NCBI GenBank assembly: GCA_965199495.1
Contig: CBDASK010000003.1
Location: 2,848,001 to 2,912,000 of the forward strand
Source of the DNA: Abditibacterium sp.
GTDB lineage: Bacteria; Armatimonadota; Abditibacteriia; Abditibacteriales; Abditibacteriaceae
Length of the DNA stretch: 64,000 nucleotides
Reading direction: 5' to 3'
Position 1 is the first letter of the stretch. Each line of letters begins with the position of its first letter. Below are positions 2-62,539 of the stretch, piece after piece. The notes below the pieces were generated by a model that had not been told where the DNA came from, searched no databases, and worked only from the letters and a program-made list of their open reading frames with translations. The position numbers and the translations under genes are program-made.

Positions 2-517
2 CTTTTTGCGGTTGCCGCGTTCGAGCGTGCCCGACATGAAAACTGTCATCGCCGCGCGCTTGACCAAAGGCGCCAACGCCGCTTCCCACGCGCCGCCTTC
101 CTCGACGTGATGCGGTTCGTCCAAAATTAAAACGTAGCGCCGCGCCGAAAACTCTTCGATGAGAAAGCTGTTGTTGGCGCCAATCGCCTGATAAGTCGTG
201 CAAAACCCGCTCAGCCCGCGACACGGATCGAGTTCGCCGGTCGTTTTGCGGATCAGATGTTGGCTGCCCAAAATCGTGCGCGAGCGGCCATTGGCGAACT
301 CGTATTCGGCCTGTTCCTGCAAACTGCGGCGCGGCACGATCCACGCGATGCGATCAGCCACGGCGGGCAGTAACACGTTGGCGGCGATGACGGGCAACAT
401 GGATTTGCCGCCGCCGGGCGTAATCGAGCAGATAATCGAGCGCACATTCGTGACTTGCCCGGTGGCAATCTCAAAACAAAGCTGGCCAAACGAATCCTGA
501 TGCGCACGAAAAGACAC
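2..517 (-). CDS. Superfamily-2 (DEAD/DEAH-type, ResIII-like) helicase, N-terminal part; runs off the window
   Basis: Not in the ORF track; translated by hand from GTG at 517: VSFRAHQ...ITPGGGKS (Walker A)...WIVPRRSLQEQ (motif Ia)...TTYQAI...LILDEPHH (motif II)...MSGT (motif III). Confidence 0.85.
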   Translation of the reverse strand, partial: MSFRAHQDSFGQLCFEIATGQVTNVRSIICSITPGGGKSMLPVIAANVLLPAVADRIAWIVPRRSLQEQAEYEFANGRSRTILGSQHLIRKTTGELDPCRGLSGFCTTYQAIGANNSFLIEEFSARRYVLILDEPHHVEEGGAWEAALAPLVKRAAMTVFMSGTLERGNRKK

Positions 518-522
518 GGGGA

Positions 523-555
523 AAGGATAAAGGATGAGGGCGCAAGGATAAAGGG
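523..555. repeat. Short heptamer tandem array (GGATAAA/GGATGAG type)
   Basis: aaggataaa ggatgag ggcgcaa ggataaa gg; same unit at 37055-37087 and, reversed, at ~41000-41030. Confidence 0.6.
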
Positions 556-627
556 GAATTCGCGAAATAGCGTTAAAGTTAATGAGGCGAAACCGAGAAA
601 CCGCTTTATTCTAACGCACTTTAAGTT

Positions 628-779
628 GAGCGGTACAGGTTCAATTGTCATTCCGAGCGCAGCCGAGGAATCTTACGGCCCCGCGCCAGCGGAATTTTGA
701 ATCACTTCTCACTTTCGCTGCCGCGAGGGCGTAAGATTCCTCGGCTGCGCTCGGAATGACAATTGAACCTGTACCGCTC
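628..779. repeat. Long palindromic REP/REPIN-like element, family A (GTCATTCCGAG...GAATC core)
   Basis: Perfect 50-bp arms (628-677 / 730-779); spacer is homologous to the reverse complement of the spacer in the 32334-32559 copy. Confidence 0.9.
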
Positions 780-835
780 GCTTATTGCGTTCGCCTTGAG
801 AAATGGCTTAGCGTTCTAATTTTGAACAGCATTCT

Positions 836-1198: not shown

Positions 1199-1352
1199 AA
1201 ATCGTCCACAGTATAAGAAGAAAATTTAGCTTGCGAACACCGACATTTACGGGGCATAACTAAAATTAAGGCCGACGCCGTGGCTGCATTGGCTGGCTCG
1301 AAAAACGCGCAGAAGTTTTTGATTCGTTGAAGCCAAAACAGCAACCACGACG

Positions 1353-1380
1353 GGAACCTGTCGGGGAAAAGTGGCGTCTG
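1353..1380 (+). promoter_or_regulatory. Putative ECF-sigma-type promoter (GGAAC-N17-CGTC)
   Basis: ggaac 1353-1357 and cgtc 1375-1378, ending ~10 nt before the predicted 6S RNA 5' end. Confidence 0.45.
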
Positions 1381-1388
1381 TTTCGGCT

Positions 1389-1587
1389 CTGCTGCGTTTG
1401 GTGATGTCCCACTAAGTTTTGAGCCTACACCAATCTCTACGGGAATTTAGCTCTTTGGCCGGGACGCCGCTTGTGGATGCCCTCACGGGTTATGGACTTG
1501 TCCAGACTGCAATGGCGCAAGGGCTTTGGGGCGGTGCCCACCTGCTTCCAAGCGGGTTCAACAACTTGAGGACACACGGCGTGGCGG
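1389..1587 (+). ncRNA. ssrS: 6S RNA (SsrS)
   Basis: ~200-nt rod: the 5' segments gctgcgtt/gtg/tgtcc/aagtt/ttgagcc pair with the 3' segments ggttcaa/aactt/ggaca/cac/ggcgtggc; 3' motif GGTGCCCACCTG...AGCGGGTTCA is typical of 6S; followed by an intrinsic terminator. Confidence 0.8.
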
Positions 1588-1604
1588 TATTCTCTCATAA
1601 TTCA

Positions 1605-1637
1605 GCGCGAAATGGCAATCGTCGTTTCGCGTTTTTT
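1605..1637 (+). terminator. Rho-independent terminator after the 6S RNA
   Basis: gcgcgaaatggc-aatc-gtcgtttcgcgt followed by a T-run. Confidence 0.75.
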
Positions 1638-1642
1638 GTTTT

Positions 1643-1740
1643 GTAGAGACGCCGATTTATCGCATCTAAAACGTTGAAACTCCTGCAAAATTTGACGGGT
1701 TCATTCCCATCTTAAAGATGCGATAAATCGGCGTCTCTAC
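1643..1740. repeat. GTAG-type REP doublet (REPIN-like), family B
   Basis: GTAGAGACGCCGATTTATCGCATCT...AGATGCGATAAATCGGCGTCTCTAC; six copies in the window. Confidence 0.9.
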
Positions 1741-1752
1741 AAAACAACCGTT

Positions 1753-3108
1753 ATGCCTCAACTTTCGCGTGGCCAAAAATCGAAATTGGCCGATCTGACT
1801 CCGGCTTTGCAACTGCGCGCCCAAATTGCGGCGCAGGCGGGCGGCCTGACTTTCGATTATTCGTGCTTTGGCATTGACCAAAACGGCCAGTTATCCGACG
1901 ACCGCTATTTCGTTTTTTATAACCAAACGTCGTCGCCCGAAGGTGCGATTCAACTGGAGAGCGTGGGCGTTTTCGATTTAGATTTAAGCCGCGTGCCCGC
2001 TTCAATCTCGCGTTTGGTTTTCGTGGCGACGATTGACGGCAACGGCACAATGGCGAACTTGCAATCGGGCGCCTTTACTCTATCGGCGAACGGCAACGAA
2101 GTCGCGCGTTTTGAATTGCGCGGCGGCGATTATGGCGCCGAAAAAGCGATCATGGTCGCCGAAATTTATAAGAAAGATGTGTGGCGCGTGGCTGCTGTCG
2201 GGCAAGGTTTCGCGGGCGGATTGGACGCGGTGTTAAAACATTTCGGCGGCGAAGCGACGGAAGAAACGCCGCAAATTACGCTACCGCCAACAGCAGCCAC
2301 GCCGCCCGCGCCGCCAAAAGCGCCGGTGAATCTCAAGAAAGTCGAGTTGGAAAAGAAAATGGAGCGTCAAGCGCCGCAGTTGGTTTCGCTGGCGAAAAAG
2401 GCGACGGTTTCGCTGGAGAAAGTCGGGCTTGCGCAGCACGTCGCCAAAGTCGCGCTTTGCCTCGATATTTCGGCTTCGATGAGCGGACTTTACCATTCGG
2501 GCGCGATTCAAAAGTTCGCCGAAAAAGTGTTGGCGCTGGGCACGCGTTTCGACGACGACGGCGCCATTGATATTTTTCTGTTTGGCGCGGGCGCTCACGA
2601 AGCGGGCGAAATGAACGTGGATAATTTTTCCAACTTCATCGGCCAAATTCAGCGCCAATATCCGCTCGAAGGCGGCACCAATTACGCGGGGGCAATGAGG
2701 CTCATTCGCCAACATTATTTTGGGCATTGCGAGCGCGGCGTGCCGCTCAAACAAAAAGTTCCGGTTTACGTGATGTTCCTGACCGATGGCGCGACATCCG
2801 ACGAAAACGGCGCTCGCCAGCAAGTCCAAGATTCGAGTTACGAACCCTTGTTCTGGCAATTCATGGGACTGGGCAAATCGAAAAAAGATGTGAAAAAGTC
2901 GGGCGGCGGATTTTGGGCCAAAGCCTTCGCTTCGGATTTTACGTTTCTCGAAGAACTCGATAATATGGGCGGGCGCTATGTGGATAACGCCAACTTTTTC
3001 AGCGTCGCTAACCCCGACGATTTGCCCGATGACGAACTTTACGATTTGCTAATGAGCGAATATCCCGATTGGGTCAAGGCCGCGCCCGGCAAAGGTTTGT
3101 TGGGCTGA
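1753..3108 (+). CDS. TerD domain + vWA (TerF-vWA-like) fusion protein
   Basis: N-terminal TerD ([38 protein letters not shown]); Pro/Ala linker; C-terminal vWA MIDAS (LDISASM, GGTNY, FLTDG). Confidence 0.9.
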   Translation: MPQLSRGQKSKLADLTPALQLRAQIAAQAGGLTFDYSCFGIDQNGQLSDDRYFVFYNQTSSPEGAIQLESVGVFDLDLSRVPASISRLVFVATIDGNGTMANLQSGAFTLSANGNEVARFELRGGDYGAEKAIMVAEIYKKDVWRVAAVGQGFAGGLDAVLKHFGGEATEETPQITLPPTAATPPAPPKAPVNLKKVELEKKMERQAPQLVSLAKKATVSLEKVGLAQHVAKVALCLDISASMSGLYHSGAIQKFAEKVLALGTRFDDDGAIDIFLFGAGAHEAGEMNVDNFSNFIGQIQRQYPLEGGTNYAGAMRLIRQHYFGHCERGVPLKQKVPVYVMFLTDGATSDENGARQQVQDSSYEPLFWQFMGLGKSKKDVKKSGGGFWAKAFASDFTFLEELDNMGGRYVDNANFFSVANPDDLPDDELYDLLMSEYPDWVKAAPGKGLLG

Positions 3109-3146
3109 ACTGGTAAAATATAAGACGATTCAAAGGAGAAAATATC

Positions 3147-3728
3147 ATGGCAATTTCACTGGCTAAAGGCCAAAAAATCAGTCTGGAAAAAGAGGCGGGC
3201 GGTTCGCTCACCGATATCGTGATGGGTTTGGGTTGGGACGTGGCTCAGGTCAAGGGATTTCTGGGCAAAATGAAAGAGGGTGCGGCGGTTGACCTCGACG
3301 CTTCGTGCGTTTTGTTCGACGAGAGCGGACAGCAACTTGATCAAGTCTGGTTTTCGCAACTCACCTCGAAAGACGGCTCGATCATTCACACCGGCGACAA
3401 TTTGACCGGCGCGGGCGATGGCGACGATGAACAGATCATCGTGCAACTGTCCAAAGTTCCGAGCAATGTAAAATCGCTCGTTTTCGTGGTCAACTCGTTT
3501 ACTGGCCAGAACTTTTCGCAAATCGAAAACGCGTTTTGCCGTATCGTCAATGGCTCGAATAATCAGGAAATCGCGCGCTATAATTTGTCATCGCAGGGCA
3601 ATCATAACGCGCAGATTATGGCTAAGGTTTATCGTCACAACGGTGAATGGAAAATGCACGCCATCGGCGAAATCGCGACTGGCCGCACCTTCCACGATTT
3701 AATGCCCGCGATGAAGGCCGTTTTGTAG
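3147..3728 (+). CDS. terD: TerD family protein (TerZ/TerD-like)
   Basis: [48 protein letters not shown]. Confidence 0.92.
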   Translation: MAISLAKGQKISLEKEAGGSLTDIVMGLGWDVAQVKGFLGKMKEGAAVDLDASCVLFDESGQQLDQVWFSQLTSKDGSIIHTGDNLTGAGDGDDEQIIVQLSKVPSNVKSLVFVVNSFTGQNFSQIENAFCRIVNGSNNQEIARYNLSSQGNHNAQIMAKVYRHNGEWKMHAIGEIATGRTFHDLMPAMKAVL

Positions 3729-3731
3729 AGA

Positions 3732-3830
3732 GGAACAAGGAGCAAGAAACAGGGAACAAGGTCGGAAACTTGAAATTTGTAGAACGTTTGCGAAGTTCTC
3801 CCTTGCTCCTTGTTCCTCGTCCCTTGTTCC
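3732..3830. repeat. Inverted heptamer-array element (GGAACAA type)
   Basis: 4x GGAACAA-like units, a ~40-bp spacer, then 4x CCTTGTT-like units; spacer homologous to that of 46834-46935. Confidence 0.85.
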
Positions 3831-3831
3831 C

Positions 3832-4827
3832 ATGACTTCAGCGACGCATTTGTTGCAGGTCGAGCGCGACAGCAATCCGTTGCGGCGCTTTGGCCACGCC
3901 TCGCCGTTTATCGGCAAATTGGGGCCGCTCGACTGTGCGCGTTTAGACCAAATCGGCCAATTGACGCGCGCGGCGTTGCCCGATTTGCCTCAGCCGACTT
4001 TGGTCATCGGCATGACCGAATCGAGTTTGCTGCTGGCATTCTGGATGGCGCTGTGGCAGCAAAAGCCGGTGGATTTGCGCTTTACCTCGCGCAAAATTCG
4101 TCAGGGCGACGCGCGCAAAATCGCGTTTCAGGAGCCGCACTCGCACGGGCCGCAGCATTATTTGGCACTGGAAAACGACGCGAAATACGCGCAAATCGTA
4201 ATTATCGAAGACGAACTCACGACGGGCGCGACGCTACGCAACTTGATTTTGGCGCTCGAAGGCGTTGCGGATAAAGTTTGGGTGGCGACGTTGCGTGATA
4301 TGCGTTCGCCGCAATTGCGCGCCGAATTAACCGCCGAAATGAAAGCGCGCGGCGTCCAGTTGGAAGTGATTTCGCTCGATACGCTCGACGTTGATTTGCC
4401 GGTCGAAGTCACGCCGATTCGCCCGCACTTCAATCCGTTTGGGCGCGCCGAACTCGACCGAATCCGTGCGCAGTGCGAATTGGAAGCGCAATGGAAAAGT
4501 TTCGCGCCCGCTCAGATTTATCTGATCGGTGAATGTGTGGACATCGCGCTGCAATGGTGGCTGCAATTGCCGGTTGAAAGTCGGCCCGAATTGCGACAAA
4601 TCACGCGTAGCCCGTGGCAGGTGGACGGCGTGGCTGTTGTGTCGCGCCAAACTTTTGCGGCGCCGAATCAGGGTTCGCGCTATTTTTTGTATAATTTCGA
4701 GCCGCCGCGAAACGGGCGCGTTCTGTGGATCGCCGAAAACAGTAACGCTTCGGTCGGCGCGCTGGCGAGCGATTGGTTCGCGTCGCAGGGCATCGAGGCG
4801 CGCGGCATTGTGGTGGCCGGGACTTAA
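3832..4827 (+). CDS. Ter-associated phosphoribosyltransferase with C-terminal TRSP domain
   Basis: LVIGMTESS, FQEPHSHGPQH, PRPP-binding IIEDELTTGAT; C-terminal ITRSP...FLYN. Confidence 0.85.
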   Translation: MTSATHLLQVERDSNPLRRFGHASPFIGKLGPLDCARLDQIGQLTRAALPDLPQPTLVIGMTESSLLLAFWMALWQQKPVDLRFTSRKIRQGDARKIAFQEPHSHGPQHYLALENDAKYAQIVIIEDELTTGATLRNLILALEGVADKVWVATLRDMRSPQLRAELTAEMKARGVQLEVISLDTLDVDLPVEVTPIRPHFNPFGRAELDRIRAQCELEAQWKSFAPAQIYLIGECVDIALQWWLQLPVESRPELRQITRSPWQVDGVAVVSRQTFAAPNQGSRYFLYNFEPPRNGRVLWIAENSNASVGALASDWFASQGIEARGIVVAGT

Positions 4828-4833
4828 GAATCC

Positions 4834-5883
4834 ATGCAAAACGATATTCAAACGCCCTGGCCAAACCTGCGACTTTACGCGCGCGATTGCGGCCTCGTTA
4901 ATCCTTATGACGACGCAAATACCGAATTATTTCGTGGTGAAGAAGCCTTTGCGCCCGACGTGGCTGGTTGGAAGCGGTGGAGCAAACCTTCGCCCGAACC
5001 GAAATTAGACGCCGAATTCGAGCCGATTACGCTCGCTTCGATTGCGCATCAGGCACCGCAAATCAACGCGATGGCGCGCTATTTAGCGATGAAAATCGTC
5101 GCGGCCAATTTCGACAAACCACCTGTTTTGATCGCGATCTTGCGCGCGGGCGCGCCGATTTGCGCGTTGTTGGCGCCGATTTTAAGCGAACATTATCAAC
5201 AAGAAATTCCGATTTGCGCGTTTTCAATGTTTTACGGTTTGGGGTGGGACGAAATCGCGCTGGAACAAATCTTAGCCGATTTTCCGAATCACACGCCGAT
5301 TTTCGTGGACGGCTGGACGAGCGGCGGCGGCGTGGCGACACAAATTAAATTATCATTCGACGAATGGATTGCGAGTGGCAAACCCGATTTTACCGAGGGG
5401 CGCGGCCCGCAATTCGCGGTTTTATGCGATCCGCGCGGAGTGGCGACATATTCGGCGATTCGCGCCGATTTTTGGGTGCCTTCGGCGGCGTTTACCGCGC
5501 CCGAAACGTTGGGGTTTTCGCGCGGTTTCGCGAGGGAAGATGGCGGTTTGTTCGGCGTTTATCGGTTTCCCGCGTCGCAACTCAAGCCACATTGGATTAA
5601 AAGTTGGCTCGATGTATTGAACACGCCGCTCACATCTTTGCCGCCCGACGATGCAGCCACGGCGGCTTTGCCGCCCGATGGTTTTCGCCTTCACGTCAAT
5701 GAAGTAACGCGCGCTTTAATCAATCGCGATCCGCTCGAAATCTGGCTGCGCCCAGCCGAAGACGAAGCGCGCCAAACGTTGGCGCCATTGATTTATCTGG
5801 CGTATAAACGCGGCGTGCCCGTTGAATTTGGGCGCGCAGAGTTGGCAAATTGGGGCGCTCTGGCTGTGGCGCGCATGAAATGA
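4834..5883 (+). CDS. StiP-like PRTase-fold protein with C-terminal Pelota-like domain
   Basis: ILRAGAP, IFVDGWT, LCDP, DFWVPSA, VNEVTRALINRDP, LAYKRGVPVE; Ter context. Confidence 0.75.
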   Translation: MQNDIQTPWPNLRLYARDCGLVNPYDDANTELFRGEEAFAPDVAGWKRWSKPSPEPKLDAEFEPITLASIAHQAPQINAMARYLAMKIVAANFDKPPVLIAILRAGAPICALLAPILSEHYQQEIPICAFSMFYGLGWDEIALEQILADFPNHTPIFVDGWTSGGGVATQIKLSFDEWIASGKPDFTEGRGPQFAVLCDPRGVATYSAIRADFWVPSAAFTAPETLGFSRGFAREDGGLFGVYRFPASQLKPHWIKSWLDVLNTPLTSLPPDDAATAALPPDGFRLHVNEVTRALINRDPLEIWLRPAEDEARQTLAPLIYLAYKRGVPVEFGRAELANWGALAVARMK

Positions 5884-6395
5884 AATCTCCGCTTTCGCAT
5901 CGCAAATTGGGCGCGCTCGATTGGTTTTGTCTGCGCGCCATCCATTTTTATCAGCGCCATTTATCGCCGCGCAAAGGTTATCGTTGCGCCTATGCGCGCT
6001 TGTATGGCGGCGGCGGATGTTCGGGTTTTGCGCGCGATGCGATTGCGCAGTTGGGCTGGCACGCCGCGCGGGCACCGATTCGCGCGCGCTTTGTCGAGTG
6101 CAAATTAGCGGGGCAAACGTTGCGTGCGCAATTCGAGTTGGACAAGCCGAGCGATTTAAAACAGGGCGAACATGATTTGACGCAGAGTAAAAAGCGCAGT
6201 TGGCACGACCGCTTCGGCGATGCGTGTTGCGTGGATTTGAGTTGGTTTATGTGCGCCGATTCGCTCTGCGACGGCAGCGCGTGCGAAGCGCTCTCGTGCG
6301 CCGATGCGTCGTGCGCACACGGCGCCCTCGCCGATGCCGCGTGTGCCGACGCGTCCTGCGCCGAAGCGGCGTGCGGTTGCCATTCGTGCTTTTAG
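5880..6395 (+). CDS. YidD-like (haemolytic domain) protein with Cys-rich acidic tail
   Basis: AIHFYQRHLSPRKGYRCAY...GCS...RFVEC; ATGA overlap with the upstream gene. Confidence 0.75.
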   Translation: MKSPLSHRKLGALDWFCLRAIHFYQRHLSPRKGYRCAYARLYGGGGCSGFARDAIAQLGWHAARAPIRARFVECKLAGQTLRAQFELDKPSDLKQGEHDLTQSKKRSWHDRFGDACCVDLSWFMCADSLCDGSACEALSCADASCAHGALADAACADASCAEAACGCHSCF

Positions 6396-6398
6396 ATT

Positions 6399-7151
6399 AT
6401 GCCCAAACTCCCACTCATTTTAGACATTGATTTCACGCTGATTCACCTCGAATATGTATCCGGCTCCATCGAAGTTCCGGGGCGCACGCGCTCGGCTTAT
6501 CTGGTACCGCGCACGATTGAAGTTCTGGGCGAATTGCAAGCGCGCTTTGACATCGTATTAGCCACGGCGCGTTCGTGGGACGGCACGCATTGGGTTTGCG
6601 AGGGACTGAAAGCGCGCGGCGTGAACGTCGAAAGCGTCGTCATCGAAGACGGCGCGCGCTTGGGGCGCTTCGGCGAATTGCGCGCGTTTGATGCCGATTT
6701 TGACGTGACAAAAATTCGCGAATCGCTTGTTACGCAAGCGAGTTGGCCCACATTCGAGTGGCAGTTAGATTTCCAAAATTGCGCCGTCGCGCGCTGCGAA
6801 AATCAGGAAGGCGCGGCGCAATTAATGGATATTTTTGCAGAAAAAGACGATTTGCAAAAATGGCGTCCGCGCTTTTATCGCGATGGGCGCAAGGTTTATA
6901 TTCTGCCCGAACGCGCCGATAAATGGAGCGCTCTGCAACAATTATTAGGCGAGCGCGCCGCGCAAGCGGCGGGCGTGGGCGATGGAGCCAACGATTTGGT
7001 TTGGTTACCAAATGTCGTGTATCCGGCGACATTTAACGATGCCGATGCCGCGTTAATTGAAGCCGTGCGCGCCCGCCCTGGCTGCATCGGCGGTGCGAGA
7101 GGGCATCAAGCGATCAAGCAGATTCTACGGGATTTTCTTAAATTTCAATAG
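6399..7151 (+). CDS. HAD-superfamily hydrolase (Cof-like)
   Basis: LDIDFTL (motif I), LATARS (motif II), ADKW, GVGDGAND (motif IV). Confidence 0.88.
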   Translation: MPKLPLILDIDFTLIHLEYVSGSIEVPGRTRSAYLVPRTIEVLGELQARFDIVLATARSWDGTHWVCEGLKARGVNVESVVIEDGARLGRFGELRAFDADFDVTKIRESLVTQASWPTFEWQLDFQNCAVARCENQEGAAQLMDIFAEKDDLQKWRPRFYRDGRKVYILPERADKWSALQQLLGERAAQAAGVGDGANDLVWLPNVVYPATFNDADAALIEAVRARPGCIGGARGHQAIKQILRDFLKFQ

Positions 7152-7242
7152 CCACGAAAAAGCACAAAAGGAACAAAAATTTGGAAGAATTAAATGAACG
7201 TTCTTCCAAATTTTTGTTCCTTTTGTGCTTTTTCGTGGCTAT
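7148..7242. repeat. Perfect 42-bp-arm palindrome built from nonamer units; likely bidirectional terminator
   Basis: atagccacgaaaaagcacaaaaggaacaaaaatttggaagaa, 11-nt loop, then its exact reverse complement; lies between convergent genes. Confidence 0.9.
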
Positions 7243-7246
7243 AAAA

Positions 7247-7702
7247 TTAAACGTCGAAATCGGCGGGCGGCAGACCGGCGGCCAAACAGGCATCGCGCAC
7301 GGCTTTCATTTCGTTTTTATCGAAGTTGCCATCGGCGTTGCCAATCACGATGCCGATTTGCACGACGGCGCGCGCCTGATCGTCTTTGCCCTTGAGCTTA
7401 CCAATCGCCTGAATCGCTTCGATGCGCCCGAAATCGGCGTCGGCGTTGATTTTGTCCACGTAAAAATCGAATTTGGTTTTCAGTTCCGAAGCCGGAAAGA
7501 TTTTCAGCGTTTCGTTGTTGCCGATAAGAGCGGCGGTTTTGGCGCGTTCGCTGGAATCCACGTTGCCATCGGCAGACGCAATCAAAGCACACATCGCCAT
7601 GCAGCCGTTGGCGAAATCGGCGTTTTTAAACTTGGAAACGTTGAGTTGCAGTTGGTCGCCCAGCGACTGCGCGCTATTTTTGAGTTGATCGAGAAATCCC
7701 AT
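7247..7702 (-). CDS. terB: TerB family tellurite-resistance protein
   Basis: MGFLDQLK...CALIASADGNVDSSER...IGNADGNFDKNE; start at ATG 7702. Confidence 0.9.
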   Translation of the reverse strand: MGFLDQLKNSAQSLGDQLQLNVSKFKNADFANGCMAMCALIASADGNVDSSERAKTAALIGNNETLKIFPASELKTKFDFYVDKINADADFGRIEAIQAIGKLKGKDDQARAVVQIGIVIGNADGNFDKNEMKAVRDACLAAGLPPADFDV

Positions 7703-7800
7703 AATGGCCGCGCGATGTTGCAAATTATGGCCCGATTTCTCGAAAAAGGGAAAACGTCCGCCCCACTGGGAACGCGCCTTGCCTGAAAACGCAGCCACTC

Positions 7801-9195
7801 ATGCCTACTCCGCTTCACATTGTCTGGCACCGCGCCGATTTGCGCACGCACGATCATCCAGCGCTCGTCGCCGCGCTCGAAATGGCCAAGTCCGGCGGCG
7901 CTGTTGTGCCCATCGTCATTATTGACGACGCGATTTTCGAGCGGCCCGATTTGACCCCGCGCCGCCAAGCGCACTTTCTGGAAAACGTGCGGGCTTTGCG
8001 CGCAAGCTATCACCAATTAGGCGCCAGTCTGGTCGTGCGACGCGGCAAACCCGAAGTCGAATTGAGCAAACTCGCCGACGAATGGGGCGATGTTTTCTCC
8101 ATTCATTTCATCAAAACTTATACATCTTACGCCAAGGCGCGCGATGCAGCCACGGCGGCGGCCTTGGCCAATCGGGGCATCGAAATTCACGCGCATGGCG
8201 GCCAATATACGCACGAACCGGGCGAAGTCTTGACCAACGATGGCGGGCGTTACGGCGTGTTCGGGCCGTATCGCAAGAAATGGCAGACATTGGATAAACC
8301 CGACGTTTTAGCCAAACCCGATAGATTGCCGCCGTTACCATCAAACATCCTTGTCGGCGAGATTCCGCGCGTCGAAAGCGATATTGCGCTGCCCGACGCG
8401 GGCGAAGACGCGGCTTTGGGCCGCTTGGAATGGTTCTTGAAAAATGGCGAAGCGACTTACGAAAAGACGCGCAACGAACCAGCGCGCGAAGATTCGACAT
8501 CGAAGTTAAGTTACTATTTCAACATCGGCGTGTTAAGCCCGCGTCTGGCGTTCGAGCGCGCCAATACGGAAAAGTGGCGACAGGAATTGACATGGTGGGA
8601 TTTTTACGCCGACGTTTTGGATAGGGCGCCCGAATCGAACGTCGTCGAATATCGCGCCGAGTGGCGCGCGTTTCCTTGGCGCGAAAACGACGAAATTCAA
8701 GACGATTTAGAACGTTGGAAAAACGGTCAAACCGGTTATCCTCTCGTTGACGCCGGAATGCGCGAACTGCAACAAACCGGTTTCATGCACAACCGCGTGC
8801 GCATGATTTGCGCGTCGTTTTTGACCAAACATTTGCTGATTGACTGGAAAATCGGCGAAGAGAATTTTCGCGGTTTATTGTTGTGCGGCGACCGCGCGCA
8901 AAACGTCGGCAACTGGCAATGGGTCGCCGGTTGCGGCGTTGATCCATCGCCTTACTTTCGCGTGTTCAATCCGACGGGGCAGGGCGAAAAATTCGACAAA
9001 CAGGGCGAATACGTGCGCCGTTGGGTGCCCGAATTAAAAGATGTCGCGGCCAAGAATATTTACGAACCGTGGAAATTGGACGCGGTGCCCAAAGGTTATC
9101 CGGCGCCGATTATCGAATTGAACGAAGGCCGCGATAGGTATTTGGAGAAGGCGAAAGCGTATCTGGCGGAGCAGAAAGCGAAGAAAGCGGATTGA
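7801..9195 (+). CDS. phrB: Deoxyribodipyrimidine photolyase
   Basis: WHRADLRTHDHPAL, TGYPLVDAGMREL, MHNRVRM, NWQWVAG, YFRVFNP, YVRRWVPEL. Confidence 0.95.
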   Translation: MPTPLHIVWHRADLRTHDHPALVAALEMAKSGGAVVPIVIIDDAIFERPDLTPRRQAHFLENVRALRASYHQLGASLVVRRGKPEVELSKLADEWGDVFSIHFIKTYTSYAKARDAATAAALANRGIEIHAHGGQYTHEPGEVLTNDGGRYGVFGPYRKKWQTLDKPDVLAKPDRLPPLPSNILVGEIPRVESDIALPDAGEDAALGRLEWFLKNGEATYEKTRNEPAREDSTSKLSYYFNIGVLSPRLAFERANTEKWRQELTWWDFYADVLDRAPESNVVEYRAEWRAFPWRENDEIQDDLERWKNGQTGYPLVDAGMRELQQTGFMHNRVRMICASFLTKHLLIDWKIGEENFRGLLLCGDRAQNVGNWQWVAGCGVDPSPYFRVFNPTGQGEKFDKQGEYVRRWVPELKDVAAKNIYEPWKLDAVPKGYPAPIIELNEGRDRYLEKAKAYLAEQKAKKAD

Positions 9196-9221
9196 TGTCA
9201 AATCGGCCAAACTGTGCAGCC

Positions 9222-10196: not shown

Positions 10197-10198
10197 AC

Positions 10199-10242
10199 CG
10201 AAACCCCCCGTTCTTTTGAAATCAAAAGAGCGGGGGGTTTCG
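10199..10242. terminator. Bidirectional hairpin between convergent genes
   Basis: cgaaaccccccgttcttttga...tcaaaagagcggggggtttcg. Confidence 0.8.
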
Positions 10243-10262
10243 CGCGATTATCTCCCTAATTT

Positions 10263-50277: not shown

Positions 50278-50347
50278 TTGGGAAGGATGGAGAAGTTTAA
50301 ACGCTCGAACTCACCCAGTTGCCTCTGCAAGCGTTAAGCGCGTCGTC

Positions 50348-51340: not shown

Positions 51341-51343
51341 AAT

Positions 51344-52786: not shown

Positions 52787-54170
52787 CGCGCGTCTCCGTT
52801 TCGCTCGATGCGGGCGCCGTGGCTGCATCGTCGGAGTTCGCATCCAATCGGGAGTTTTCCTTCGCACCAAGATTGGAAGGGTGCGCCAGCCCCGCCGCGC
52901 CTAATTCCGCTTCCAGCGCGACAATTGCACTGATTTGTTCGGGCCAACTCAACACAATCGTGCGGTCGTCGGACGAGCCTTTTTTCTCATAACCCAGCCA
53001 ATTCAAAAGCGTGGCGCCCGCATCGTCGGCGTCTTTGGCGAGCGGATTTACTTCCTCGAAAACTTCGCCTAATCGTTTGTCTTCGGGGAAATAATCGTCG
53101 CTCACGCCATCGGAAACAAGCATCGTCGCGCGCAAATCGGCGGGCATCGAGAATTTGACGCGATTGGTGAAATCGTCTTCCATGTTACCCGTCGTCAGAA
53201 AACGCGTTTCGCTCGAATGCTGGCCGTGATCGGCGGCGCCCAAAAGTTTCAGGCCATCGGCGCAATCGAGCGCGATGGCACCATCGCCGACCTGCAACGC
53301 CGCGCACAATTGCTTTTCGCCGACAGCGCGGCGCACCAAAATCAACAACGTCGCGGCGAAGGCTCCCAACGGTTGCTCGCGCGCGTCGGCTTCGTCGCGT
53401 AACGCTTGCAGCGCCGCCTTGGCCGCGCCAATGAGGGCGGCTTTGATGCGCGGCAAATCAGCGTTGATGTCGTCGCTTAGCGTTTCGATGTCGCCCAGAC
53501 TGCCCATCAAATCACCGAGGGCGACTTGGCACGCGACGGTCGAGCCGACGCGCGAAAGCGGCGCTGAGCCAGCGCCATCGGAAACAATACTAATGCTCCA
53601 CGAACCCACCGCGTTTTCGGCGAATCCCAGCGCGAACGCGTCTTCGCGCCACAGGCCGCGATGCGCGTGCAATTTGCCGCGCACGCTGGCCGCCGCGACC
53701 TGCCAACCATCGGGTGCGGTTAAATTCCCGCTCTCTTTATGCGGCGTCGGATCTGTTGGGTCGGCGGGTTCGTTTTCCTGCCACAGCGGTTTGCTAACGA
53801 TGTAATTGGCGCTACAAAGCGGCCCGCGCTCGCCAGCAGCCACGGCGCGCGCATGGAGTGTTGCGCTTTGGGTTAACAATATCTTTTCGGGCGAGTAGGG
53901 CGTCGAGTTTTCGTTGGGTTCGCTGCCGTCGAGCGTGTAGAAAATGCGCGCATTGGGCGCGTCGCAGTAAATGCCGACCGTCACCGACGATTGAAACGGC
54001 GCATCGGGCGCGGGCGCAAAGGTTAGTTGAAGCGCCGGGTTTTCGGCGGTCATATCGAATGAAATCGTCGGTTGCGTCATCTCGATTTCGATGTTTTGTG
54101 GCTCGCTTTCGTCTTTGGTTTCGGGCGGCGTGGCTGCATCGGTCGCGTTGGTGGGTAAATCGGGTGTCAT
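52776..54170 (-). CDS. TerY-P triad PP2C-like phosphatase with N-terminal Fn3-associated (CHB_HEX_C-like) domain
   Basis: ASVRGKLH...REDAF, VSDGAGSA, VGDG, VSDGVSDD, DDRT; N-terminal IFYTLDGSEP. Confidence 0.88.
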   Translation of the reverse strand: MTPDLPTNATDAATPPETKDESEPQNIEIEMTQPTISFDMTAENPALQLTFAPAPDAPFQSSVTVGIYCDAPNARIFYTLDGSEPNENSTPYSPEKILLTQSATLHARAVAAGERGPLCSANYIVSKPLWQENEPADPTDPTPHKESGNLTAPDGWQVAAASVRGKLHAHRGLWREDAFALGFAENAVGSWSISIVSDGAGSAPLSRVGSTVACQVALGDLMGSLGDIETLSDDINADLPRIKAALIGAAKAALQALRDEADAREQPLGAFAATLLILVRRAVGEKQLCAALQVGDGAIALDCADGLKLLGAADHGQHSSETRFLTTGNMEDDFTNRVKFSMPADLRATMLVSDGVSDDYFPEDKRLGEVFEEVNPLAKDADDAGATLLNWLGYEKKGSSDDRTIVLSWPEQISAIVALEAELGAAGLAHPSNLGAKENSRLDANSDDAATAPASSETETRDGC

Positions 54171-54204
54171 GAAGATTTTGAATAAATTTGTGGCGGGCGC
54201 GCCG

Positions 54205-54325
54205 TTTTGATAGCCCCGTAGAGACGCCGATTTATTGCGTCTAAAACGTAAATGCGCTCGCGAAGTTTGCGGCAACTCGGACGTTTTAGACGCAATAAAT
54301 CGGCGTCTCTACGGGGCTATCAAAA
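54205..54325. repeat. GTAG-type REP doublet, family B, with 13-bp locus-specific outer arms
   Basis: ttttgatagcccc-GTAGAGAC...GTCTCTAC-ggggctatcaaaa. Confidence 0.9.
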
Positions 54326-54353
54326 ATTATTTCACGCCAGAAACGCTAAAATT

Positions 54354-55034
54354 TTATGGCACGATCACGATTTCCGGTGGCGGCGGCGGCAACTTAATTT
54401 CCGCTTCGCCGCGATTGGAAACGCCTGTCGAAGTCGTGGCGACGCTGGCCGAAACCCACTGGAAAAATTGTTTCAACGCTTCGGGCTGCAAGTCGCTGAG
54501 TTTCACCACGATGTTGGTGATGCGTTTCAAAACCGATTCGTCGGCTCCGGCGCCCGCCGCGCACGCGATGAAGTTGCCCGGCTTTTTGGCTTTGATGGCG
54601 TCGGCGGCGTCTTCCCATTTATCGGTCGGTTCGCCGTCGGTCATCAGGAAAATCAGCGGCTTCCAATCGCCCTTCTGGTCGGCGGTCGTCTGGCGCACTT
54701 CGCGGTCAATGCAATCGGATAAAAGTTTCAAAGCCGCGCCCAACGCCGTCGTGCCGGTCGCCTGAAAATCGGGTTCTTTGACCAACATCAACTCGGTGAG
54801 CGGATTGACTTGGCGCGCCGTCGAATCGAAAGTAATGACGCTCAAAAACACCGTTTCGAGCGCTTGCGGATCGCTTTTGAGTTCGTTCAAAAGCGTCTTC
54901 ATGCCCTGACGCACCGCTTCGATGGGCGCGCCGGTCATCGAGCCGGAACAATCGAGAACGAGATAAACCGGTAGACGACGAATCGAGGCGTCGGCGAAGG
55001 GAGATTGGGAACGAGGAATGGGATCGGTAAGCAT
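54354..55034 (-). CDS. terY: TerY vWA protein
   Basis: RRLPVYLVLDCSGSMTG, SDPQALET, KGDWKPLIFLMTDGEPTD, FFQWVSAS, LPPPP. Confidence 0.93.
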   Translation of the reverse strand: MLTDPIPRSQSPFADASIRRLPVYLVLDCSGSMTGAPIEAVRQGMKTLLNELKSDPQALETVFLSVITFDSTARQVNPLTELMLVKEPDFQATGTTALGAALKLLSDCIDREVRQTTADQKGDWKPLIFLMTDGEPTDKWEDAADAIKAKKPGNFIACAAGAGADESVLKRITNIVVKLSDLQPEALKQFFQWVSASVATTSTGVSNRGEAEIKLPPPPPEIVIVP

Positions 55035-55089
55035 AAATTGTGTGAGAGAGTTAGCAGTTAGTGGGCCATGCAGTTTTTGACTTTGGGGT

Positions 55090-55176
55090 GACGCAGATTA
55101 TCGCGTCTAAAATGTAAATTATCCGCAAAGTTGAAGCAAATTCGACCTTTTAGACGCGATAAATCTGCGTCTCTAC
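55090..55176. repeat. GTAG-type REP doublet, family B (left end eroded)
   Basis: gacgcagattatcgcgtctaaaa...ttttagacgcgataaatctgcgtctctac. Confidence 0.85.
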
Positions 55177-55182
55177 AGAAAC

Positions 55183-56232
55183 TTATCCCACGCGCCCCGA
55201 TAATGAAATTGGCCCGCCCGGCCCGCCGCTACTCAAAACGACGCCGCAGTGCGGGCACTGCAAATCGGAGCCGTCTTCGGGCGCGCAAAACAGATTTTTG
55301 CAATCGGGACACTGGCCCGCCGCGCGATTGTCGCAGTAGGGGCACGGCAAAACGCCCAACACGTTTTCACTCGAAATGCCCATCAGCGCGTCTTCGGCGG
55401 GGCGCGGCCCAGCGAAATAATCTTCGTCCACGATATGAGTGCGCACGGCGGCATAAACGCCGTGGCTGGTGTCGAAACCAAAGCGCGTTAAAAATGGTTG
55501 GCGCGTGTTGCAACAGCGCAGCGACAGGAACAGCCACGCCGGGCGCCGCGTCTGCTCCAGAGTCGCGCCGATGGGAATCGAAGGCGCGCTGAAAGTTTCG
55601 GCGGGGATTTTGGCGAGCGAAATCGCTTCGACGCCGGGCGCGCCAATCGCCTGACTGGTCACGCTCAGAGAACTCGAAATCCACTGGAACAAGCTGCGAA
55701 AATCCAACTCGCTTTCGCCCATCATCAAAACCGAATCGGCGATTTCGTTCAAGACGAGCGGGTTCGCGTCTTCGCCGCAACCGATGCCGATGATATTCAT
55801 TTTCTTGCCGCCAGTTTTTGAGGGCGCTTTGAGTTGGCGCGCTTCGTCGCGCCAATCGTCGGTCGGGTCGCCGTCGGTGAGCAGGAAAACGAGAGGTTTG
55901 TAATCGCCTTTTTGCGTCGCCGAATGCGTGCGCACTTCGCGCTCGATGCACTCGCGAAGCAAACGCAACGCGGCGCCCAAACCGGTGCCGGGCTGAACTT
56001 TCAATCGCGGCGCTTTGATGCCGATCATTTCGGTCAAAGGCAAAATTTGCTGCGCGTTTCCGGCAAAGGTGATGATCGAAATCCACACGGTTTCGAGGGC
56101 GTGCGGGTCGGAGTGCAAATCCAGTAAGAGCTGGCGCATTCCGGCGTTGACGCCGTTGATGCCGTCGCCGATCATGGATTCGGAGCAATCCAAAAGCAGA
56201 TAAACCGGCAAACGCCGTTCGGTAAATTCCAT
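55183..56232 (-). CDS. TerY vWA protein with TerY-C metal-binding domain
   Basis: RRLPVYLLLDCSESMIG, LTDGDPTD; C-terminal CPYC...C.DC...C...CPHC. Confidence 0.9.
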   Translation of the reverse strand: MEFTERRLPVYLLLDCSESMIGDGINGVNAGMRQLLLDLHSDPHALETVWISIITFAGNAQQILPLTEMIGIKAPRLKVQPGTGLGAALRLLRECIEREVRTHSATQKGDYKPLVFLLTDGDPTDDWRDEARQLKAPSKTGGKKMNIIGIGCGEDANPLVLNEIADSVLMMGESELDFRSLFQWISSSLSVTSQAIGAPGVEAISLAKIPAETFSAPSIPIGATLEQTRRPAWLFLSLRCCNTRQPFLTRFGFDTSHGVYAAVRTHIVDEDYFAGPRPAEDALMGISSENVLGVLPCPYCDNRAAGQCPDCKNLFCAPEDGSDLQCPHCGVVLSSGGPGGPISLSGRVG

Positions 56233-58994: not shown

Positions 58995-59045
58995 AAATAA
59001 GAATTGTCGGCCAGTTTACTCAATGATTTCGCGATGCAACGAAGG

Positions 59046-60272
59046 TTATTTCTCGCCGTAAACGAAACCACCGCGCGCGTTGGCCTGTTGCTTGAACGTG
59101 TCGAGCATCTTTTGATCAAAGCCGTCTTTGCCACCGTTTTTCTCTAACTCGGCTTTGAGAAACGCGTTGCGTTGCGTTTCCAATTCGGTGAGTTGAGCTT
59201 TAAGTTTCTTGCGTTCGGCGATCTGCGTTTCCAGCATTTGGCGCTTTTCGTCGAGCGATTTTTTCTCCCACTCGGTCGGCCATTCGTCGGCTTTAATCTC
59301 TTCGATTGCGCGCCCGTTGATCACTTCGGTGACTAAATCGAAGGCCGCGTAAATCTGGCCGGATTTATAATTGAACGATTGGCGGGCGATCATATTGCTG
59401 ACACCAGTTTTCTCGCGGAACAGGCCACCGATCGTCGGAATATCGCCCAGAATTGGCGCGCCATTGACATATTTAGCGCCGTCAATTCCAGCCGCCGCCA
59501 ACGACAAACTGCGCTCGTTTTCTCGTCCACGCCGTGCGACAGTTGTCAGTTCCAGACCGGCGCCCAACTTGACCATTTTCTCGTCGAAAGGCGTCGGCAC
59601 GTTCACCACGCCGCCGGTTTGGGCGAGCGTGAAATAATTGCCCAGGCCGCGTTTGGCGATGTCGAGCCACACGGTTTCGGTCTCCGCGTTAGTGCCACAG
59701 CGAATCGCATTGACGAAAATTCCGCGCGCGGCGGCTTTGTCGGCTTCGGCTTTATAATCGAATCCATCGTTATAATCGGTGTGCGGCGGGCAATCGCCGA
59801 CCAGAAATATCACCTGATAAAGCGCGCTATCGGTTGAGCCGCCCGCCTTCCACTCGATGCCCGAAACTGCTTCGTGCAAACCGGCGCTGACGTGTTCGGG
59901 TAAGTCGCCGCCGCCCTGCGCCTTGAAGGTTTGCAGCGTCGCAAACGCCGCGTCCAAATCGTCGGTCAGCGGGTGAACCTGCGTGACGTAAGCGTCGCCT
60001 TTATCGCGGTAAGCCACGAAGCCGATGCGAATTTCGGGTTGCGGTTTGGCGGTCACGATTTCGTTGACAATAGACCAAATCTTCGACTTGGCACCTTCAA
60101 TTAAACCGCCCATCGAGCCAGTCGTATCAACGACGAAAACCAGTTCCATGCGCGGTTTGTCGGGCACGCGAAAGGTTTGTTTGACGGGCAGTTCTCCCGT
60201 CGGTTGAAGTTCTTGCGCTTGGGCGAGCGCACTTGCAGCCACGAGGGCAGCAAGAAGAAGTAGAGGTTTCAT
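59046..60272 (-). CDS. Secreted vWA-domain protein
   Basis: Signal peptide MKPLLLLAALVAASALAQA; VVDTTGSM, GFVAYRD, GGGDLPE, LVGDCPPH. Confidence 0.88.
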   Translation of the reverse strand: MKPLLLLAALVAASALAQAQELQPTGELPVKQTFRVPDKPRMELVFVVDTTGSMGGLIEGAKSKIWSIVNEIVTAKPQPEIRIGFVAYRDKGDAYVTQVHPLTDDLDAAFATLQTFKAQGGGDLPEHVSAGLHEAVSGIEWKAGGSTDSALYQVIFLVGDCPPHTDYNDGFDYKAEADKAAARGIFVNAIRCGTNAETETVWLDIAKRGLGNYFTLAQTGGVVNVPTPFDEKMVKLGAGLELTTVARRGRENERSLSLAAAGIDGAKYVNGAPILGDIPTIGGLFREKTGVSNMIARQSFNYKSGQIYAAFDLVTEVINGRAIEEIKADEWPTEWEKKSLDEKRQMLETQIAERKKLKAQLTELETQRNAFLKAELEKNGGKDGFDQKMLDTFKQQANARGGFVYGEK

Positions 60273-60375
60273 TGCGGCGTTTGGACAGCGCGCGCACAAC
60301 AAATGTTCCCTGCCAATGTTTTCGGCGGACGGTGACGGAGTGGCACGCGGTTTTCGTCTGTTGCAAACTGCGCCC

Positions 60376-61389
60376 ATGAACGATTTGGCCGAGAAATGGC
60401 GCCAGCGTTTGCCGATTTTAGAAGCGCAATTGCGAAGCGCGCCGCGCGATATGAGCGCTTGGCATTGGCGCGCCGAAATTCGCGTTTTGCATTTTCTATT
60501 GAATCGTTATGCCAAACCGGAAAACGCGATGGAACCGAACGAATTATTACTGGACGAAATCGCATCCGTCCCGATGTCGCCGCTCGAACGTTCGCTGTTG
60601 AAGATGGCGCTTTTGATTCCCAACATTCACACCAAACGCACGCGTCCTTCGGAGAATGAGCGCGCAAATATTCTGGAGCGCATCAAAGTCGTGGGCGACG
60701 AGGCGCGCATAATTGACGAAGCCGAACAGGAACGCTGGGGCAAATTGCGCCTCGATAGTAAAATTCAGCTCGAAGCCAGCGCTTATCAAGATTTGCTGAC
60801 GCGGCAATCCAAGATACAACGGCGCGAAATCAAGCAACGTTCTCGCAAAGCCCCGCACCAAAAGCCACTGAAAATGCCGATACACCCCAAACGCGACATC
60901 ACCGCTTTCGGCCCGCGATTTCCCGTCGTCTGCCCGCGCTGTTCGAGGTGCGCCGATTTAGAACAAGAGAACTCCGCTAAGATTACGCTCGATTGTCTGA
61001 GTTGCGGTTACGCGCGCCAATGGCAATCGTCGCAAATTCAACTGGCGAGCGGTTGGCGGTGGCTGGGGAAAATGGCGCACCCGGTGCCAGCGGGATTTGG
61101 CGGCACGCCCGCCGAATTATGGATCGAAACTTCGTCCGATGCGACGCAGCAATCGCAGGGTTTGACGTTGCGGCTGTGGCTGCAAACGCCCTGCGACGAA
61201 GAAAATTTGTGGTTTCTTAATCGCGAACATTTGAATTTCGTCGAGCATTATTTGCGCGATTCCGCGAATGTCGAAGACCAAAGAACGCAAATTCAGTGGG
61301 TAGAGCCGTGGATTTGGGAAGCCGATGAAAAATGTGTTGCGCGCTGTCTGGCGGAGCTTCGTCTCAAAATGGATGCGGGCAACGAATAA
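60376..61389 (+). CDS. Hypothetical protein with Zn-ribbon domain
   Basis: VCPRCSRC...CLSCGY...LWLQTPC...LWFLNREHL. Confidence 0.65.
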   Translation: MNDLAEKWRQRLPILEAQLRSAPRDMSAWHWRAEIRVLHFLLNRYAKPENAMEPNELLLDEIASVPMSPLERSLLKMALLIPNIHTKRTRPSENERANILERIKVVGDEARIIDEAEQERWGKLRLDSKIQLEASAYQDLLTRQSKIQRREIKQRSRKAPHQKPLKMPIHPKRDITAFGPRFPVVCPRCSRCADLEQENSAKITLDCLSCGYARQWQSSQIQLASGWRWLGKMAHPVPAGFGGTPAELWIETSSDATQQSQGLTLRLWLQTPCDEENLWFLNREHLNFVEHYLRDSANVEDQRTQIQWVEPWIWEADEKCVARCLAELRLKMDAGNE

Positions 61390-61580
61390 ATTCGCGACGC
61401 GGTATTCTGCTGAAAACTTTATTTTGTAACGCCGACGCGTTCGTATTAATTTCAATTTTTATGGATTGGATGCGACCGCAATCAACGATAAAATCGCGCC
61501 CGCAAATTTTGCTTCCTATTTAAATTTGAACGCATTACACTGCGTCCCGTCCCAAAAAAATCACAAGCATCCGTAATTCT

Positions 61581-62539
61581 ATGGCTAAAAACTTCAAAAA
61601 TGTCCAGTTGCTGTTCGCGCTGGCTTTGTGCGCCCCAATTTGCGCGAGCGTGCAAGCGCAGGACGCGGCGCCCTCCGTCCCGGCAACTCCCGCCGCCGTG
61701 ACACCAGCCACGCCGCAGGCGGCTTCTAATCCTCACCGCCGATTGTCTTTGGTAACAGAACAGGGTTCGTTCAAAAACGTATTCAACTCGCTTGGCGAGG
61801 CGCGCACGGCGGCGCAGGGCAATAGCTACAATCAAACGCTGAAAAGGGCAGCGAAATTATCGTAATGAACGCGCGCGAGGCCAATCCTTCCTTTACGAAC
61901 CCGATAACTTACTCGCTGTTTTCAATGACAAAAACAGATGTTGAACCGCTTGTCAAATCCTATCTCGATTATCGCGCGGCCAACCGAGAGGCGGACGGAA
62001 CGTCAGAAATTAGGCAACACGAGCGCGCGATGGTTGACGGGGTCATGAAAGCTCTGACCGTCAGTTTTCCGCGCACAGCCCCCAGCGATGCGGTGCCCGT
62101 CGAGTTAGCTTTGCCGAATATTTCCGTGCGACTCGAAACCGATGATACGCAAAATCCGCTGATCGGAGCAAAAATTGGTGATGGCTACATGTATGAGTCG
62201 GTGATGAATAACGAACGATTGAAGGGTTCTACGGCGCTCAAAACTCTGGCGGGCCGTGAAAAATACGGCTACAATCGCTATTCCACTTTGCAGGACGCGG
62301 GCGACGTGGCTACAATCGTTCCCGGAACCAAAATCATCGTTTTCAACGGAAATAGTTTTTCGCTTTACCGCCTGGGCGATTTCAAATCTGATTACAAAGG
62401 GGGCGATGAACAGTTCGATGTTTTCAAAACGACGCCGATGCGCAAAGGCTGGATTGTCGTGGCGATAGTCGCCGGAAGCAAATTCATCCCAATTTACCAA
62501 CCGAAAGCCAAACCCGCCGCCGCCGCTCCTACTCGATGA
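61581..62539 (+). pseudogene. Secreted hypothetical protein split into two ORFs (61581-61865, 61865-62539), probable frameshift
   Basis: ORF1 has a signal peptide; ORF2's frame is open from 61826 across the run ctgAAAAggg. Confidence 0.5.

Follow-up and report, generated by a model that had tools for sequence, protein, structure and literature searches.

What does a short, asymmetric DNA word gain by recurring dozens of times, on both strands and within unrelated genes, across 64 kb of an Abditibacterium chromosome, and what keeps its copies apart? The stretch analysed here (the window) is 64,000 nucleotides long and corresponds to C3:2,848,001-2,912,000 of the source genome (G000), a 4.81-Mb assembly in three contigs that is 95% complete. 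An earlier note had listed nine places for a 14-mer, about 23 copies of the 11-mer CGCCGTGGCTG and about 45 copies of the 8-mer core CGTGGCTG; we recovered the 14-mer at exactly those nine places (4 on the + strand, 5 on the -), 23 copies of the 11-mer (13 +, 10 -) and 48 cores (26 +, 22 -), where an order-3 Markov model of the window predicts 3.5. The repeated unit differs from the 14-mer, however: its third position takes C, G or A, and the CAT at the end is weak. It can be written CG[C/G/A]CGTGGCTG, commonly with a C after it (CGVCGTGGCTG(C)), and its heart, CGTGGCT, hardly varies, changes there lowering the 12-mer count from 690 to at most 17. The word is written and kept by point substitution under a strong force, which acts per strand and to either side of a site, levels off on a scale of about 0.6 kb in each direction, and is blind to replichore and gene direction.

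The enrichment extends well beyond the window. On the 4.72-Mb chromosome, the 11-mer is present in 2,112 copies (1,045 +, 1,067 -), and CGTGGCTG occurs 3,091 times genome-wide compared with 436 expected (order-4 Markov model). Genes were called with our own hexamer model (3,821 genes, 83% coding), and gene boundaries are therefore approximate; 1,927 copies are genic, against 55 after synonymous-codon shuffling within genes (ten shuffles), and a window artefact or codon artefact is thus ruled out by the genome-wide Markov excess and the shuffling. The genic copies span all six frames, chiefly as xAVAA and AATA/AATP, and fill 1,926 of the 3,215 protein-compatible places (60%). In the window, 43 of the 48 cores lie inside called genes and read as DAATAA, AATPP, AVAA and the like, as had been claimed, and the Ala codons that they bring in are indeed unusual (GCA 5.6% and GCT 9.8% of Ala codons across the genome). 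Compatible peptides number 154 in the proteins of the source genome and 77 in homologues from word-less kin (70.7 k aligned residues). A word-bearing relative with 84% DNA identity (G006; 231 kb aligned, 122 sites) keeps the 7-letter core at 88/122 sites, compared with 41% for random 7-mers, and keeps 234/266 four-fold positions where 180 were expected, with 5/122 sites gapped (control, 3.4%); the copies are thus created by substitution and then kept. Conservation against the third word-bearing genome (G012) was at background (166 vs 159), with 19/119 sites gapped (control, 6.4%), which is compatible with a shifted specificity together with tolerant positions.

The spacing of the copies depends on strand. 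Within 500 bp, the chromosome holds 40 same-strand pairs where 236 were expected and 260 opposite-strand pairs, also with 236 expected. By distance, observed over expected same-strand pairs are 12/90 at 60-250 bp, 26/118 at 250-500, 53/118 at 500-750, 79/118 at 750-1000 and 186/236 at 1000-1500, while opposite-strand pairs in the same bins number 83, 125, 128, 158 and 262 (expected 90, 118, 118, 118 and 236). Four control words lack a same-strand deficit, and unlike variants of the word also exclude each other, which together rule out deletion between direct repeats. Occupancy of the 3,215 compatible places is 0.18 where the nearest same-strand copy is less than 200 bp away and climbs to 0.77 where it is 2-5 kb away, equally on the 5' and 3' sides, and is flat against opposite-strand distance (0.57-0.64 up to 3 kb). 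The best fit, 3.5(1-e^-d5/600)(1-e^-d3/600), is saturating and two-sided with a 600-nt scale; adding an opposite-strand term (-0.24) gained 1.5 log-likelihood units, and an unbounded d5 × d3 model fit far worse, as did a cost model for unbounded resection (1999.5 vs 1838.8). In simulation, per-strand saturation reproduces the pattern, whereas an orientation-blind model depletes both pair types and fails.

The exclusion is replicated in both relatives. In 430 kb of G006, there are 14 same-strand pairs against 54 expected and 63 opposite-strand pairs against 54; in 400 kb of G012, with 46 close inverted pairs dropped, the corresponding figures are 9 vs 25 and 29 vs 25. If the inverted pairs are kept, both classes are depleted in G012 at 250-1000 bp, because each pair has both orientations. 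For comparison, 107 E. coli Chi sites in about 400 kb are clustered (18 pairs vs 11 expected), and on a Nostoc plasmid, a weak control, the first 100 of 253 sites of HIP1 (highly iterated palindrome 1) look clustered by eye. No clear gradient of flanking base composition or divergence was found around the copies. We found no report of same-strand exclusion in the literature searched on spacing, orientation and strand, which consisted mainly of non-subscription texts; a supplement of PMC2397512 that deals with inter-DUS (DNA uptake sequence) distances may bear on this claim.

Neither transcription nor replichore polarity accounts for the pattern. Between neighbouring genes transcribed in opposite directions, at 60-600 bp, copies on the same DNA strand number 9 vs 26 expected and those on opposite strands 36 vs 27; exclusion thus tracks DNA strand rather than gene direction, ruling out a transcription or RNA-level cause, although it looked somewhat stronger within one gene than across genes. 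It is alike on leading and lagging strands. Replichores do exist, with dnaA at 2.03 Mb and silent-site AT skew switching near 2.0 and 4.4 Mb, and the octamer GGGCAGGG, which we take to resemble the E. coli KOPS (FtsK-orienting polar sequences), is leading-strand in 204/225 cases (90.7%); overall GC skew on C3 is nearly flat despite this bias of about 91%. The word itself falls on the leading strand in 1,071/2,112 cases (50.7%), its polarity (z 2.4) is inside the range of ordinary 8-mers, and polarity toward the terminus of the kind known for KOPS or AIMS (architecture-imparting sequences) was not found. Replichore polarity and a role in lagging-strand priming are thereby ruled out, in line with the lack of strand polarity that the earlier note had reported for the window. 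With enrichment that outlasts codon shuffling and reaches beyond the window, none of the three outcomes named in that note as refuting its reading was observed.

The word is scarce in DNA of apparently foreign origin: the two small contigs carry 0 (C1; 14.6 expected) and 2 copies (C2; 38.3 expected), and the longest word-free gaps on the chromosome sit over islands and a prophage. A scan of viral sequences gave 37 single matches, with no virus clearly enriched. The largest word-poor island (C3:1.12-1.26 Mb) holds two orphan ComM C-terminal pieces, with a whole comM near its right end; many transformable species have a comM interrupted by elements (PMC12378983), and pieces of this kind would be expected were comM a target of such elements. 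On C3, a CRISPR-like repeat that includes CTCACAAGACCC is found 131 times with unique spacers, and locus L100 of G012 carries another array of about 107 repeats.

Within the class, only 3 of 31 genomes are word-bearing (2,113 copies in G000, 1,776 in G006 and 720 in G012; all remaining genomes 94 or fewer). In a quick ComEC tree built from 26 of 30 ComEC loci, four with short or failed open reading frames (ORFs) being left out, the trio forms one clade (support 100) nested among word-less members of the genus. G012 has its own dialect, (A)GGACGTGGCTGGTGTC, with 1,184 copies of the 15-mer that are present in protein-coding DNA too; it also has many intergenic inverted pairs, of which 17/46 share a 33-bp spacing, so that part of its count may be a repeat family, and many start with GTAG like the doublets of repetitive extragenic palindromic (REP) sequences. 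None of the metagenome loci examined for this dialect (80 of 119) was enriched. Other genera of the family have palindromic words. In G019, TCGAGTACTCGA has 254 sites in 300 kb, 150 of them in ORFs, and its pairs within 500 bp number 32 vs 107 expected; G026 has CTGCAAGTACTTGCAG and G015 an inverted repeat of 24 bp, both mostly intergenic, and RAGTACKY has 2,700-4,500 matches per strand in six genomes. Palindromes centred on GTAC are hyper-iterated in G019, G016-G018, G025, G026 and G015 (loci L141-L146, L166-L167 and L294-L313); they are HIP1-like though outside cyanobacteria, and avoid each other below about 750 bp. In C3 of the source genome, GTAC and CTAG are strongly avoided (0.11 and 0.04 of expected), and the genome has a restriction gene of the MjaI family and another of the BsoBI family. 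No dominant word was seen in 14-120 kb samples of 15 other genomes; sampling of G002, G007, G008, G022 and G027 fell short of a useful depth.

The source genome has a competence apparatus (ComEC, ComEA, DprA, a ComFC-like protein, RadA, ComM and PilB/T/C/D) along with RecJ, two RecQ, RecF, MutS2, UvrD and MutL. Queries with RecB, RecC, RecD, MutH, AddA and AddB matched only UvrD in this 95%-complete assembly, and RecBCD, AddAB and AdnAB were likewise not found with PF12705 or with E. coli RecB/C/D and kin AddA/B queries. Every word-less member of the genus (10/10) gave an AddA match, and two outgroups gave weak ones; the three word-bearing genomes and the family's other five genera yielded none. 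Several of those five genera have no word, and lack of AddAB is therefore not sufficient for it. The comEC gene is whole in the three word-bearing genomes and apparently split or short, perhaps by assembly error, at L291 (G014), L293 (G023) and L292 (G003), in genomes where the word was not detected.

We considered several proteins as the reader of the word. A minor pilin of about 1,300 residues, encoded as a tandem pair at the end of the pilus operon (C3:872853-880963), is no more than a lead. According to the search hit table, its full-length tandem pair is confined to the three word-bearing genomes, some others having weaker second matches, and its identity among the three is 53-59%, against 91% and 77% for ComEC; this fast divergence could equally reflect phage pressure. 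Its model (pLDDT 84 and 88) begins with a pilin fold (Z 6.1, rmsd 4.2 and 105 residues against a streptococcal minor pilin), and structure comparison (VIA) returned pilin and beta-barrel folds only. The protein fell into no Pfam family, resembled no PDB sequence, gave nothing in Foldseek at E<=0.001 (Atlas matches were under 0.9) and matched neither ComZ nor ComP; evidence that it binds DNA was not found either. PF16732, the ComP-type receptor family, was unmatched in the source genome, and the control genomes were equally silent. A protein of 1,421 residues joining a PD-(D/E)XK nuclease to an Upf1-type helicase (C3:4111365-4115630, L129), which we take to be Dna2-like, has its gene in 5/31 genomes, the three word-bearing ones and two others, in none of which AddA was matched; it was rejected as the reader, for the G006 copy is frameshifted and misses about 680 residues at its start, although G006 has kept the word intact. 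Of three methyltransferase families listed for the source genome, only the MmeI-like member was followed across kin, and it was rejected since G006 and G012 have no strong match. Ssn-like nucleases were set aside because their genes are flanked by GTCATT repeats rather than by the word; these small GIY-YIG genes with GTCATT hairpins lie at C3:3607400-3608600 and, in G012, on C8 near 1,014,300, and the related GTCATTCTGAG family has 121 copies in the source genome. ComEC, finally, was set aside for its presence regardless of the word and its average divergence.

Our preferred explanation, to which we give about an even chance (roughly 0.5), is that the word is a self-recognition signal read per DNA strand during the uptake and homologous recombination of kin DNA, and that it has spread by drive, as a strong force at thousands of sites, each with a tiny effect, would suggest. 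Competence would bring one strand into the cell, and a strand bearing the word may be favoured, either by an oriented receptor that nicks and feeds in that strand or, alternatively, by shielding of the single strand or licensing of its RecA loading or its fixation across some 1.2 kb. An added copy would then gain only where its own strand lacks a covering copy, those on the other strand being irrelevant, and a favoured donor strand would therefore keep same-strand copies apart without any opposite-strand term. Conversion tracts in Neisseria have mean lengths of 573-1,734 nt (PMC2397512), so transformation delivers single strands near the exclusion scale of about 1 kb. SsnA, which cleaves its site on one strand and affects transformation, is a precedent for strand-specific reading (PMC11893778), and HIP1 raises transformation of Synechococcus 7002 in a partly homology-dependent, AddAB-independent way (10.1101/2024.09.10.611283); reading of sequence after uptake therefore exists. 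Searches of this lineage turned up no AddAB, and the word may take the place of Chi there. A bolder and more doubtful extension is that it represents a third kind of bacterial self-DNA signal, a single-strand word licensing about 1.2 kb of kin DNA that arose where AddAB and Chi were lost, with the palindromes of neighbouring genera, and possibly HIP1, as its two-strand form.

Several observations weigh against this explanation. It does not predict the surplus of opposite-strand pairs at 750-1000 bp (158 vs 118), which is greater in the + then - order (92 vs 59). The DUS of two Neisseriaceae-type genomes, the only uptake word tested, shows no exclusion at 60-750 bp (591 copies in about 400 kb; same-strand 299 against 309 expected, opposite-strand 307 against 308); as long Neisseria uptake fragments could mask exclusion, the asymmetry between pair types is the stronger argument. 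A comparison of weak and strong copies, which has little power on theory, and a turnover test against G006 (18/100 and 20/97) revealed no direction of action. ComEC is found in 30/31 genomes of the class, with or without the word, and diverges between dialects at about the genome average; the association of missing AddAB with the word within the genus is a single event on one branch of the quick tree; and no reader was found among the methyltransferase, Dna2-like, Ssn-like, ComEC and giant pilin candidates. No demonstration of competence in the Abditibacterium group was found in the literature searched. The palindromic words of other genera need the same or another explanation. Lastly, a Chi-like stop or a nick-and-terminate process would give an identical spacing equilibrium, and these therefore stay rivals.

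The rival that survives best, though we consider it unlikely, is that the word is a Chi-like stop for non-canonical resection, by RecJ/RecQ or a Dna2-like nuclease-helicase, at two-ended breaks such as those caused by desiccation. Each direction of travel would be stopped by one strand's copies only, so replichore polarity is not needed and same-strand-only exclusion would be predicted. The distribution of AddA within the genus fits, as do RecJ, the two RecQ and the Dna2-like gene of the trio, and, weakly, the occurrence of related contigs in lichen and rock metagenomes, where read-based contigs are mixed and short and runs with a small share are no habitat evidence. The broken Dna2-like gene of G006, the poorer fit of the unbounded-resection model and the clustering of Chi in E. 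coli argue against such a stop, and the G012 dialect, at 15-17 letters, is long for Chi.

Distinctly less probable is a methylation-directed repair ratchet of the HIP1 type, in which a mark on one strand would make that strand the template within about 1 kb and copies would rise to a functionless saturation. The word, graded over 11-17 letters, is long for a methyltransferase site. Elhai's model saturates at about one site per 1,000 nt (PMC4390886), MutL is present in 30/31 genomes, methyltransferases are many in the source genome, and the GTAC-centred palindromes of kin also repel at short range. The replication-fork version, by our own derivation, makes opposite-strand neighbours matter, whereas occupancy is flat against them; MutH was not found in the source genome, and the absence of a strong MmeI-like match in G006 and G012 also speaks against the ratchet. 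We think it less probable again that the word is the site of a chromosome-organising or directionally loading translocating protein with even spacing kept by selection. The native chromosome is evenly covered, and a structural role has been proposed for HIP1 (PMC5861425), but a double-stranded site would be expected to compete in either orientation, and 28/31 kin do without this word.

There is, if anything, less to be said for a classic double-stranded DUS or USS (uptake signal sequence), bound in either orientation by a receptor at the pilus tip, to which we assign a very low probability. Here the earlier interpretation divides: a lineage-specific, unpolarised signal with a DUS-like imprint, putatively recognised by a protein, is upheld by the depletion in foreign DNA, the doubling of compatible peptides, the dialects in kin and the intact competence genes, whereas a plain either-orientation DUS/USS is not, given that exclusion is same-strand only, that the orientation-blind simulation depletes both kinds of pair where the data deplete one, and that 591 DUS copies lack exclusion. 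Density and the intergenic inverted pairs of G012 also favour a classic signal, the two-fold peptide increase is similar to that described for DUS/USS (PMC2817400), and the giant pilin pair is restricted to the trio, but that pilin lacks both a ComZ/ComP match and evidence of DNA binding. A nick site for a single-strand HUH enzyme (a relaxase or REP-associated transposase), or a mobile-repeat remnant, with transfer bounded by same-strand copies, would predict the same-strand-only interaction and suits the 33-bp-spaced, GTAG-starting pairs of G012, but is very improbable in that 91% of copies in the source genome are single and coding, few aligned sites are gapped, hairpin covariation was not found, and the repeats beside the two RAYT-like (REP-associated tyrosine transposase) genes and the Ssn-like gene are of other kinds.

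Within the window, the set spans 355..61712 on both strands and comprises the 48 cores, 40 of them in full 11-mers CG[C/G/A]CGTGGCTG. Two 14-mer copies lie outside called genes, at 1276..1289 (+) and 32244..32257 (-). Five are antisense in ORFs: 5651..5664 (-) in ORF 4834-5883 (DDAATAAL), 8144..8157 (-) in the photolyase-family gene 7801-9195 (RDAATAAA), 10965..10978 (+) in ORF 10263-13031 (GDAATATT), 22606..22619 (+) in ORF 21835-22665 (PNAATAND) and 52815..52828 (+) in ORF 52776-54170 (DDAATAPA). The two sense copies are 43849..43862 (-) in the RarA-like AAA ATPase gene 43481-44806 (VVAVAALN) and 15089..15102 (-) in the FabZ/LpxA ORF 14283-15797 (PAAVAASS); the latter, on the - strand, is an apparent fusion of 504 residues, of which the first third matches FabZ and the remainder LpxA. 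A close inverted pair of 11-mers (29906..29965; - at 29906, + at 29955) lies within an LptC-like gene. The + strand cores lie at 1279, 2187, 4629, 4959, 9298, 10120, 10968, 12048, 16821, 20308, 21530, 22609, 25256, 28643, 29958, 31246, 34265, 37178, 40684, 42499, 44756, 45534, 47891, 52818, 54129 and 55461, with a smallest gap of 330 bp (1279..55468). Those on the - strand lie at 355, 2294, 5654, 8147, 15092, 19114, 21976, 27072, 29906, 30495 and 32247, then at 40089, 42199, 43852, 44515, 49623, 51463, 53837, 55531, 57297, 60236 and 61705, with a smallest gap of 589 bp (355..61712). The window also holds REP-like intergenic inverted pairs starting with GTAGAGAC (1643-1740, 15872-15965, 18040-18131, 44820-44915, 54218-54312 and 55169); this family, distinct from the word, has 294 chromosomal matches, 18 of them in called genes.

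To our knowledge, few hyper-iterated genome words have been described, namely DUS, USS, Chi, KOPS and HIP1, and within that kind the novelty here is the strand-specific spacing law, which is sharp and replicated. Being asymmetric, the word exposes a per-strand force over about 0.6 kb each way that is hidden in palindromes. The law narrows the mechanism to a single-strand step, and same- versus opposite-strand spacing is a cheap test for any other iterated word, including HIP1, whose mechanism has gone unexplained for three decades (PMC13756078). A natural comparison is provided by a genus that contains species with and without the word, together with a dialect shift. The literature searched, again mainly non-subscription texts, contained no link between Abditibacterium and an uptake sequence and no genetic tools for the group, for which the word could serve as a transformation tag.

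Among known systems, HIP1 (GCGATCGC) and the alternate HIPs are likewise unpolarised, written by substitution in genes, conserved at silent sites and present about once per 1-2 kb (PMC4390886, PMC5861425, PMC13756078), with a suspected link to transformation (10.1101/2024.09.10.611283), and other Abditibacteriaceae have palindromic words of their own; the Abditibacterium word differs in being asymmetric and longer, and no cognate methyltransferase was found for it, the MmeI-like family being the one followed across kin. Chi, read by RecBCD or AddAB, is an orientation-dependent signal tied to recombination, but our word is unpolarised, its enrichment is 35-fold rather than modest, it shows exclusion rather than clustering, and neither enzyme was found. 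The NTS of Neisseria, cut by SsnA, is also read on one single strand and alters transformation, but it forms clustered hairpins, found mostly between genes, and its effect is to lower transformation (PMC11893778). From REP/RAYT and Ssn/NTS systems alike, the word is set apart by its mostly coding location (1,927/2,112) and the absence of covariation, although the G012 pairs remain REP-like. The DUS of Neisseriaceae and USS of Pasteurellaceae also resemble it, being asymmetric words of about 10-12 letters in thousands of copies on both strands (PMC2397512, PMC2817400), with a protein imprint, scarcity in foreign genes, dialects among kin and intergenic inverted pairs, the last seen here in one kin genome. 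They differ in that the word is 91% coding, belongs to another phylum and comes from a genome in which no ComP match was found, control genomes being equally silent, and in its same-strand exclusion over about 1 kb, which is absent from the DUS sample; it is best read as a word that is DUS-like in its imprint while not being a classic DUS.

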